Positions 62,673 through 64,000 of a stretch of 64,000 bases of DNA are shown in pieces. How positions within the stretch are numbered: position 1 is the first letter of the stretch; every line of letters starts with the position of its first letter. Source of the stretch: Escherichia coli (lineage in GTDB: Bacteria; Pseudomonadota; Gammaproteobacteria; Enterobacterales; Enterobacteriaceae); NCBI RefSeq assembly GCF_009931435.1, contig NZ_CP043414.1; one strand, 5' to 3'. The position numbers were made by a program, and so were the translations under genes. The notes beneath the pieces are model-generated. The model was not told the DNA's origin and did not search any database. It saw only the letters and a program-made list of their open reading frames with translations.

Positions 62673-64000
62673 AGACTGTCTCATAATCTTTGTCGAACAG
62701 GTTGGCTATTTTACCACGAACTGTCAGGTGAGAGGTGACCGGATACGCAACCGCAAGATCCCACACACTCAGTCCCCCCATTTTCACCCTACGGGCATTG
62801 TCAAAGTCGTAATCGTATCGCTCACCGATGTACTGATACGTAACATCCCATCCAAGCTCATAAATCTCACCGCTCAACTCATATTTTACCTGCTGTTTTG
62901 CGCGACGATAGAGTTGCTGATCAGTTTCATCATCGCGGGGGTCAACATACTGCAACGTCAAACGATGATCGACTGGACCAGTTATGAGATTACCCGTCCA
63001 TTCAAGGCCCTTAATTGTCGCGGATTTGACGTTAAAATAGGTATTTTTGTTGTAGTCAATCAGATTCTGGATTTTGTAGTGATAGGTCGACAAGCGCCAG
63101 TCAACTGGACCGGTTAGGCCTTCTAATCCAGCCTCCCATTGCTTAGATTCTTCTGGCTTCAAATTAGGGTTAGAAGCAATACCGAATCGCTCTGCGCCAA
63201 ATTGTTGACCAAGCGAAGGAGCCAGGAAACCTGTTCCATAGGAAAGCGTTACTTTGTAATTATCAACAAACTGCCATCCTGCCGCCGTTTGCCAAGTACC
63301 ATGCCAGCCGAACTGACCATCGTGATCCTCACGACCAGAGGCTTCCAGCGTGACGTTGTCAATTTGCTGCTGCCCGGTCAGATAAAGCCCGGTGTTGTTG
63401 CGCTTATAGTTATCTGTGCCATAAGCACCGAAGGACATCAGTTTTTCCTGTTTCCAGTCCGCTCCTGCGCTGATAGCACCATGTCCAACAATGACATTGT
63501 TACCCCACTGGATATAACGTTGCTCCATATCATCAAGAGTATAACCTGACGCGTAACGTCTAGCCTGACTGCTGTAGTTGTAGTCCTTAATGCGCTGATA
63601 ATTTGCAACCAGCTGAGAAGAATAGATCCCCGAATTAAAACGCAACCCCGTATCCCACGACTGCGTATAATTTTGATGCTCGTCATTGCCGCCATCATAT
63701 CCCCAGTTCCCCTGGTCGTAATCAGCATTACTGGCATAACCATAACCACGGAAGTAACCATCAAACTGATCGTTAAATTTGTGCTCAATTCCGCCCCAGA
63801 ACAGCTTGTTGCGATAACCATCGCGATCGCTATCTCCGCTATAGCTTGAGTATGGCTGGATGTTGAAACCTTTGGTCGTTTGATAAGCCCCTGCAGCAGT
63901 CACGACCGTGTCACCAAAACGCTGACGGTAAGTACCATCGTATTGCTGGTAACCTTTCGAACCAATACCGATATTAATCTGCGAACGCTCTTCATTCGTC
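62617..64000 (-). CDS. btuB: TonB-dependent vitamin B12 / colicin E / phage receptor BtuB, 5' end beyond window edge (divergent allele)
   Basis: Minus-strand frame open from the window edge to the stop at 62617; C-terminus ...[34 protein letters not shown] is the canonical BtuB terminal beta-strand; overlaps the murI start by 56 bp. Confidence 0.85.
   Translation of the reverse strand, partial: [460 protein letters not shown]

Follow-up and report, generated by a model that had tools for sequence, protein, structure and literature searches.

We analysed the btuB gene at the end of a 64,000-nucleotide stretch of Escherichia coli DNA (contig NZ_CP043414.1; hereafter the window). Its product, the outer-membrane cobalamin transporter BtuB, is a standard model for TonB-dependent transport, colicin import and T5-like phage adsorption, and it is the receptor of the E colicins, colicin A and phage BF23. 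The gene is intact, and the part from about codon 35 to about codon 560, here called the cassette, was very probably replaced by homologous recombination from Escherichia fergusonii or a very close relative. We refer to K-12-like BtuB as type A and to window-like BtuB as type B; these labels belong to this analysis.

The stop codon of btuB occupies positions 62617-62619 on the minus strand, and positions 62620-63999 form 460 codons without a stop. The first-pass annotation of this DNA had let the gene end at 62673, and the actual end is 62617. As btuB runs past the window end, its full length was supplied by three independent assemblies (L004, L006 and L007) that show 0-1 mismatch to the window across 2.4-2.6 kb; the identical full-length allele lies at 4218-6056 of L006 and encodes protein P0121. 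The features on which the argument depends are the following.

62617..64000, minus strand: 3' three quarters of btuB (codons 153-612 and stop), allele class B1', TonB-dependent cobalamin outer-membrane transporter; the gene runs past the window end
62766..64000, minus strand: window part of the probably imported type-B cassette, in which all sites that distinguish E. fergusonii from K-12 have the E. fergusonii state
62581..62765, minus strand: invariant block, made up of the last 149 nucleotides (nt) of btuB and the first 92 nt of murI, without a variable site among the window, K-12 and E. fergusonii
62379..62580, minus strand: 5' part of murI with E. coli (K-12-like) states, 13 K-12 sites vs 2 E. 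fergusonii sites
61795..62358, minus strand: 3' part of murI and a few bases beyond, E. fergusonii-like, about 30 E. fergusonii sites vs 3 K-12 sites
61815..62672, minus strand: murI, glutamate racemase of 285 residues, from the list of open reading frames; laid out as in the K-12 annotation and overlapping the btuB 3' end by 56 nt

Origin of the btuB cassette

Compared with the K-12 gene (taken from NC_000913.3), the BtuB fragment in the window is 52.6% identical over 454 aligned residues, and the full-length protein is 58% identical (612 vs 614 residues). The first-pass annotation had called the allele highly divergent, and the figure is indeed 52.6% rather than above 95%; the C-terminal and barrel motifs that it quoted are present in the window protein, whose final 50 residues (ending SGSYTF) are the same as in K-12. 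At the DNA level, blastn homology to K-12 btuB begins only at 62787 and downwards, and the rest of the cassette cannot be aligned. In contrast, the flanks are 98.4% identical to K-12 over 38640-56355 (17.7 kb) and 98.2% over 56304-62787 (6.5 kb). The cassette and K-12 differ by a saturated proportion of synonymous differences (pS) of 0.82 and a nonsynonymous divergence (dN) of 0.42, whereas the synonymous divergence (dS) of the flanking genes is 0.23 for trmA and 0.17 for murI. The neighbouring genes had been described as near-canonical, which is right for the flanks at large and less so for trmA (95.6% identical to K-12) and murI (94.8%). Other regions of the window are 95-99.6% identical to E. 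coli genomes, with one relative at 99.6% in the collection. The divergence of btuB thus far exceeds chance or species-level divergence, and since the flanks are 98.2-98.4% identical to K-12 instead of uniformly divergent, it cannot be explained by a window from another species.

A near-identical sequence was found in E. fergusonii. From about 400 nt upstream of the btuB start to about 150 nt before its stop, leader and cassette of the window lineage are 99.5-100% identical, in each 200-nt segment, to E. fergusonii CP057266.1 (locus L066), and the encoded protein is 99.8% identical to the E. fergusonii BtuB P0127. Between these two genomes the cassette has a dS of 0.006 and a dN of 0, while the dS of the flanks amounts to 0.21 for trmA and 0.09 for murI. 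Further upstream, fabR-yijD of the window lineage is 98-99.5% identical to K-12 and only 86-98% to E. fergusonii; downstream of murI the rRNA operon follows as in K-12. The earlier proposal of a recombinant allele in an E. coli background is borne out by this combination of an E. fergusonii leader and cassette with E. coli-like surroundings on both sides.

The 3' boundary is sharp in terms of variable sites. The last donor-specific site is 62766, and the junction falls within the last ~170 nt of btuB, so that a breakpoint near the murI overlap, as first suggested, is retained; the conserved C-terminus from which it had been deduced is, however, found family-wide. The foreign tract extends past btuB, because the 3' part of murI is E. 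fergusonii-like. The foreign states in murI are often common to E. albertii and E. whittamii too and are thus non-coli ancestral states. Among complete E. coli genomes no murI is more than 96.5% identical to that of the window, and 4,338 of 5,425 lie at 90-95%. Likewise, none of 5,426 complete E. coli genomes has the window btuB allele. The exact window BtuB protein is indexed in 346 blocks of a wider assembly collection, where the loci that were read show the E. coli order oxyR-sthA-fabR, and the exact window MurI protein is also found on contigs with the same btuB allele. Independent assemblies, a 5.0-Mb chromosome among them, have the same junctions as the window. The E. fergusonii btuB (P0127, L066) has the same junction to K-12-like sequence at its 3' end as the window, yet its background differs, with M20 peptidase and major facilitator superfamily transporter genes upstream of fabR in place of sthA.

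The near-identical E. fergusonii cassette in an E. coli background and the mosaic murI hence argue for an import by homologous recombination. The site patterns point to a recent event, most simply a patchy transfer into one E. coli lineage, and the transfer would have run from E. fergusonii to E. coli. The crossovers probably took place in sequences common to all enterobacterial btuB loci: upstream in the zone of riboswitch leader, signal peptide and TonB box, and downstream in the nearly invariant block of btuB end and murI start (62581-62765), a likely anchor. Such an exchange would have left the patchy foreign tract that reaches over most of murI. If so, the case is a clean example of the recent replacement of a surface receptor between species.

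Some further observations concern this locus and the rest of the window. In one draft assembly of the same lineage (L005, GCA_001038025.1), the same allele at 4218-6056 is broken by at least two indels, one of them in a C run at btuB nt 74, and is called as two open reading frames of 263 and 359 residues; the gene is a true pseudogene there, or else the sequencing was at fault. The order trmA-btuB-murI-rrn is identical in every locus compared, and complete E. coli genomes have a median of one btuB-matching place, as expected of a single-copy gene. Opposite btuB, the plus strand holds open reading frames at 62605-63117 (170 residues) and 63139-63549 (136 residues), which are without support as genes and are regarded as frame artefacts. 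The stretch from thiH to nfi (29185-38612) is 95.8% identical to K-12, vs 98.4% for the adjacent rpoBC-tufB, and 98.7% identical to the best complete E. coli genome; it may reflect lineage divergence or a further recombined tract.

Two BtuB lineages and their shared junction

The window allele is no oddity evolved in place but a member of a second BtuB lineage, one that is widespread among Enterobacteriaceae. Types A and B share 52-58% identity over their full length, with saturated synonymous sites, and are separated in 100 of 100 bootstraps of a neighbour-joining tree (a distance method); within type A the branching follows taxonomy, with Photorhabdus first, then Yersiniaceae, then Enterobacteriaceae. 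A protein search with the window fragment returned some E. coli at 93-94%, Citrobacter rodentium at 93%, Lelliottia, Leclercia and Huaxiibacter at 87-88%, Klebsiella pneumoniae at 81% and many Salmonella enterica at 77-78%. These type-B relatives are 74-94% identical to each other and only 51-54% to K-12 BtuB. Type A was surveyed by scanning one genome per species with K-12 BtuB as query, which recovered E. albertii and E. whittamii (97-98%), a strain of Salmonella enterica subsp. arizonae (87%), Citrobacter youngae, C. braakii and C. werkmanii (85-86%), Enterobacter, Klebsiella indica and Lelliottia (77-80%), Serratia and Rouxiella (~70%) and Photorhabdus (~60%). Carriers of type B include E. 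fergusonii, C. amalonaticus, C. farmeri, C. rodentium, K. pneumoniae, Cedecea and many Salmonella, and both types are present in E. coli, Salmonella enterica and Citrobacter. In Salmonella enterica, the type-A cluster has 5,032 member sequences, and one type-B protein occurs on at least 1,000 contigs. A reading of the window allele as Salmonella-like was dropped: BtuB of S. Typhimurium LT2 is more than 87% identical to that of MG1655 (PMC3424200) and LT2 is therefore type A. Three further loci stand apart. The type-A btuB of Intestinirhabdus alba BIT-B35 (L014, from 4001) has a premature stop at codon 391, and records labelled Chryseobacterium sp. 18061 (L028) and Caballeronia mineralivorans (L064) hold enterobacterial type-A btuB contigs, 78% and 100% identical to K-12, that are probably contamination in public records.

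Within E. coli, counts over the 5,426 complete genomes resolve btuB into a few classes, here with their representative strains.

Class A1: K-12; 4,953-4,962 genomes (91%); reference
Class A2: strain A35; about 92 genomes; ~75% DNA and 83% protein identity to K-12
Class B1: strain VCSW7; 89 genomes; 90.5-90.8% DNA and 94% protein identity to the window
Class B2: strain MB52; 283 genomes; 71% DNA and 77% protein identity to the window
Class B1': the window allele, window strain; 0 complete genomes

All E. coli BtuB classes have their first 34 residues in common, and their last 46 or more. Between classes, pS reaches 0.74 (K-12 vs A35) and 0.78 (window vs MB52), as against a dS of 0.02-0.2 in the flanks of the same genomes. 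Each class is nearly uniform; for B2, for example, identity to the window stays at 70.9-71.1% throughout the listed genomes, among them O127:H6, O169:H41 and O68:H12 strains. The A2 protein (strain A35, L069 2878-4722) groups in the tree with the Salmonella type-A protein and not with K-12. Natural receptor knock-outs were also encountered: in E. coli EC416 (NZ_AP027404.1 312285-314917) a K-12-type btuB is split by the IS30-like ISApl1, and in PEC145 (NZ_CM168020.1) the gene is partial.

The same discrepancy between btuB and its flanks holds in Salmonella, where types A and B differ by a btuB pS of 0.73 vs a flank dS of 0.08. Saturated btuB differences thus stand against a flank dS of 0.02-0.2 within species: the allele classes are older than the species that carry them, and both occur in several species, which is the pattern of a trans-species polymorphism. 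Within a class, btuB diverges about as much as its surroundings, although the window allele is itself an instance of recent transfer. The dS between A1 of E. coli and E. albertii is 0.435 (flanks 0.38-0.41), and between genera, where values are near saturation, it is 1.68 for the window vs C. amalonaticus (flanks 1.5-1.6) and 1.67 for K-12 vs C. youngae (flanks 1.4-1.7). A recent import from Citrobacter, with its 93% protein identity, was rejected, as the DNA is only 78-86% identical and a dS of 1.68 equals the flank level.

The 3' end of btuB behaves differently from the rest of the gene. Over the last ~150 nt of btuB and 60 nt past the stop, 26-30 of 30 positions match per block in every Enterobacteriaceae genus sampled and in both types, and third codon positions are 94-100% conserved in the btuB/murI overlap, vs a dS above 1.5 elsewhere in btuB. 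The C-terminus, too, is conserved in every BtuB of both types from every genus sampled. As this block is nearly invariant across the family, a conserved 3' end alone marks no breakpoint. The near-invariant stretch of ~150-200 nt at 62560-62770 suggests a constraint beyond protein coding, for example murI expression signals or an RNA element, and the conservation of the 3' end may reflect the murI overlap together with these signals; a simple scan found no promoter or terminator on the minus strand of the conserved junction. The real junctions lie just upstream of the block, where the sequence is WDLAVAYP, in K-12-like codons, for the window and E. fergusonii and WDIGLSYP for B1 and Citrobacter. 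B2 turns E. coli-like slightly earlier, so that B1 and B2 each have their own 3' junction.

Weighing the explanations

If the window lineage had simply kept a type-B allele from the ancestor of Escherichia, no recent import would be needed. Type B may indeed have been in the genus for long, because the dS between B1 (VCSW7-like) and the window allele (0.41) is close to the E. coli-E. albertii distance (0.38-0.43), and within-type divergence between genera resembles that of the flanking genes. Vertical inheritance is nevertheless very unlikely for this allele: its cassette is separated from E. fergusonii by a dS of only 0.006 and a dN of 0 while the flanks differ at a dS of 0.09-0.21 and fabR-yijD by up to 14%, the states at the informative sites change abruptly along the sequence, and the allele occurs in no complete E. 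coli genome. An artefact, be it DNA of another species or a chimeric or contaminated assembly, would fit an E. fergusonii-like cassette and the stray enterobacterial btuB contigs held by some public assemblies; we give it practically no credence, given more than 24 kb of flanks at 98.2-98.4% to K-12 and the recurrence of the junctions in independent assemblies. Rapid diversifying selection in place, in which phages or colicins changed the exposed loops of a K-12-like gene, would be in line with 13 of 14 indel positions vs K-12 lying in extracellular loops (L2, L3, L7, L8 and L10) and with the loops being, by a small margin, the least conserved region. When the two types are compared on a modelled topology, however, the plug is 69% identical, periplasmic turns are at 54%, the periplasm-side strand halves at 55%, the outer ones at 53% and extracellular loops at 50%. 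The substitutions, which had been described as extensive in loops and strands, are thus spread almost evenly, and a concentration of divergence in the loops was rejected. Together with the saturated pS of 0.82 and the presence of the same type in other genera, this makes selection in place extremely improbable. Wherever dN/dS could be measured it is 0.02-0.17, and neither this low ratio nor the uniform region identities give any sign of phage or colicin selection.

Import from E. fergusonii, which we prefer, has to be weighed against several observations. The DNA comparison took in a single E. fergusonii locus, so that the direction of transfer is inferred and not proven. trmA is mixed, with many sites unique to the window lineage, and a single event or donor does not account for the upstream history. 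No exact position within the 185-nt invariant block can be given for the 3' crossover, and the junction of type-B to K-12-like sequence at 62766, being common to E. fergusonii, may be older than the transfer. The AlphaFold model that underlies the region identities has 22 barrel strands, yet only moderate confidence (mean predicted local distance difference test score 65, predicted template modelling score 0.68), so its loop and strand labels are approximate. Finally, no result shows a changed phage or colicin sensitivity.

What has kept two lineages apart is a separate question. We tentatively consider btuB a whole-gene two-lineage polymorphism older than the genera of Enterobacteriaceae, which would be kept by long-term balancing selection (such as phage/colicin pressure or corrinoid preference) and shuffled between species as a cassette, with the riboswitch/TonB-box end and the ~150-nt nucleotide-invariant btuB/murI junction as fixed recombination anchors; this is quite possible, though far from assured. 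If true, the K-12 protein is one of two widespread forms, and the window catches an interspecies cassette exchange in the act. That the lineages are maintained by a difference in substrate (corrinoids/cobamides) or in calcium dependence, and not by phage or colicin pressure, seems to us rather unlikely. The plug, which is not surface-exposed, also differs by 31%, and the types show fixed differences at positions presumed, after the 2003 crystal structure, to contact Ca2+ or cobalamin in K-12 BtuB: L63S, N72E, G92N, A231Q, Q191D and D179N, the first five each invariant within type. Yet two of the residue names assigned to such contacts were wrong, and key contacts (S65, D95, Y229, D230, N276 and R497) are conserved, as are D193, D195 and D241, with four of six Ca2+ ligands retained. 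A study of Gifsy-1 (PMC12312913) was at first taken to show phages discriminating between the two types; this was rejected, because LT2 is type A and the study thus has no bearing on A vs B.

Predicted function and relation to known systems

Full-length P0121 scores 1054.4 bits against NCBIfam NF007926 (cut-off 836) and 670.6 bits against TIGR01779 (cut-off 599.7), both at equivalog level; the window fragment reaches 730.8 bits against NF007926 and falls below the cut-off only through truncation. Pfam PF07715 and PF00593 are precomputed for the relatives. PDB BtuB chains match the allele at E = 1e-213, and every solved BtuB structure found is of the K-12 type. The TonB box DTLVVTA, which like the plug lies outside the window, is the same as in K-12, and a cobalamin riboswitch (Rfam RF00174, 87 bits) lies upstream of btuB, beyond the window end (L004 3963-4152). 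The product, with a plug and a 22-strand barrel, should have remained a functional TonB-dependent cobalamin transporter whose expression is controlled by the riboswitch. Ligands that read the extracellular loops, including the receptor-binding domains of E colicins and the receptor-binding proteins of BtuB-dependent phages, would probably meet a different receptor; that sensitivity to phages or colicins is altered in any way is a prediction from the sequence.

Variation of this kind in btuB is already on record. A 2025 survey of E. coli outer-membrane proteins (AEM, PMC12175518) lists BtuB among 21 families with 'mosaic evolution' and gives four types of its first hypervariable region (HVR1; Data set S1). 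These match our classes: YGNTGTQAQT is A1, YGNTGMQPQS is A2, HSSYSGDG is B1 and GSPYSGDS is B2; the window HVR1, YSSYSGDS, is two residues off the nearest listed one, HSSYSGDG. The survey scored BtuB as 'present' in 91% of 3,104 genomes and counted only types 0 and 2. This is the type-A fraction found here, which suggests that type-B alleles fell below its detection threshold. Our literature search for btuB recombination, alleles, fergusonii, trans-species polymorphism and positive selection found no description in a main text, only the supplement of PMC12175518; functional data on type B with BF23 or the E colicins were not found either. Most worth following are the cross-genus spread of the two lineages and the nucleotide-invariant junction.

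The consequences reach beyond this strain. In about 7% of the complete E. coli genomes BtuB is only ~55% identical to that of K-12, and this also holds for hundreds of assemblies of the window lineage, for K. pneumoniae and for many Salmonella. What K-12 BtuB predicts about phage host range, colicin sensitivity or vaccine epitopes may not carry over to type-B strains, and homology-based surveys can score a type-B btuB as absent.

Altogether, the window allele shares with K-12 BtuB (b3966; PDB 1NQE, 1NQH, 1UJW and 2GSK) the locus, the family models, the signal peptide, the TonB box, the riboswitch leader and the 22-strand barrel with plug. In its population pattern btuB resembles the 'mosaic evolution' genes fhuA, ompC, ompF, ompA and lamB (Wang et al. 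2018; Chen et al. 2022; PMC12175518), in which likewise a few discrete types are spread by recombination at a conserved locus, and its few discrete sequence types are found across unrelated lineages. It departs from that model in one respect: there, variation is confined to short hypervariable loops in a conserved protein, whereas in btuB the differences run through the entire cassette and extend to the plug and the periplasmic side.

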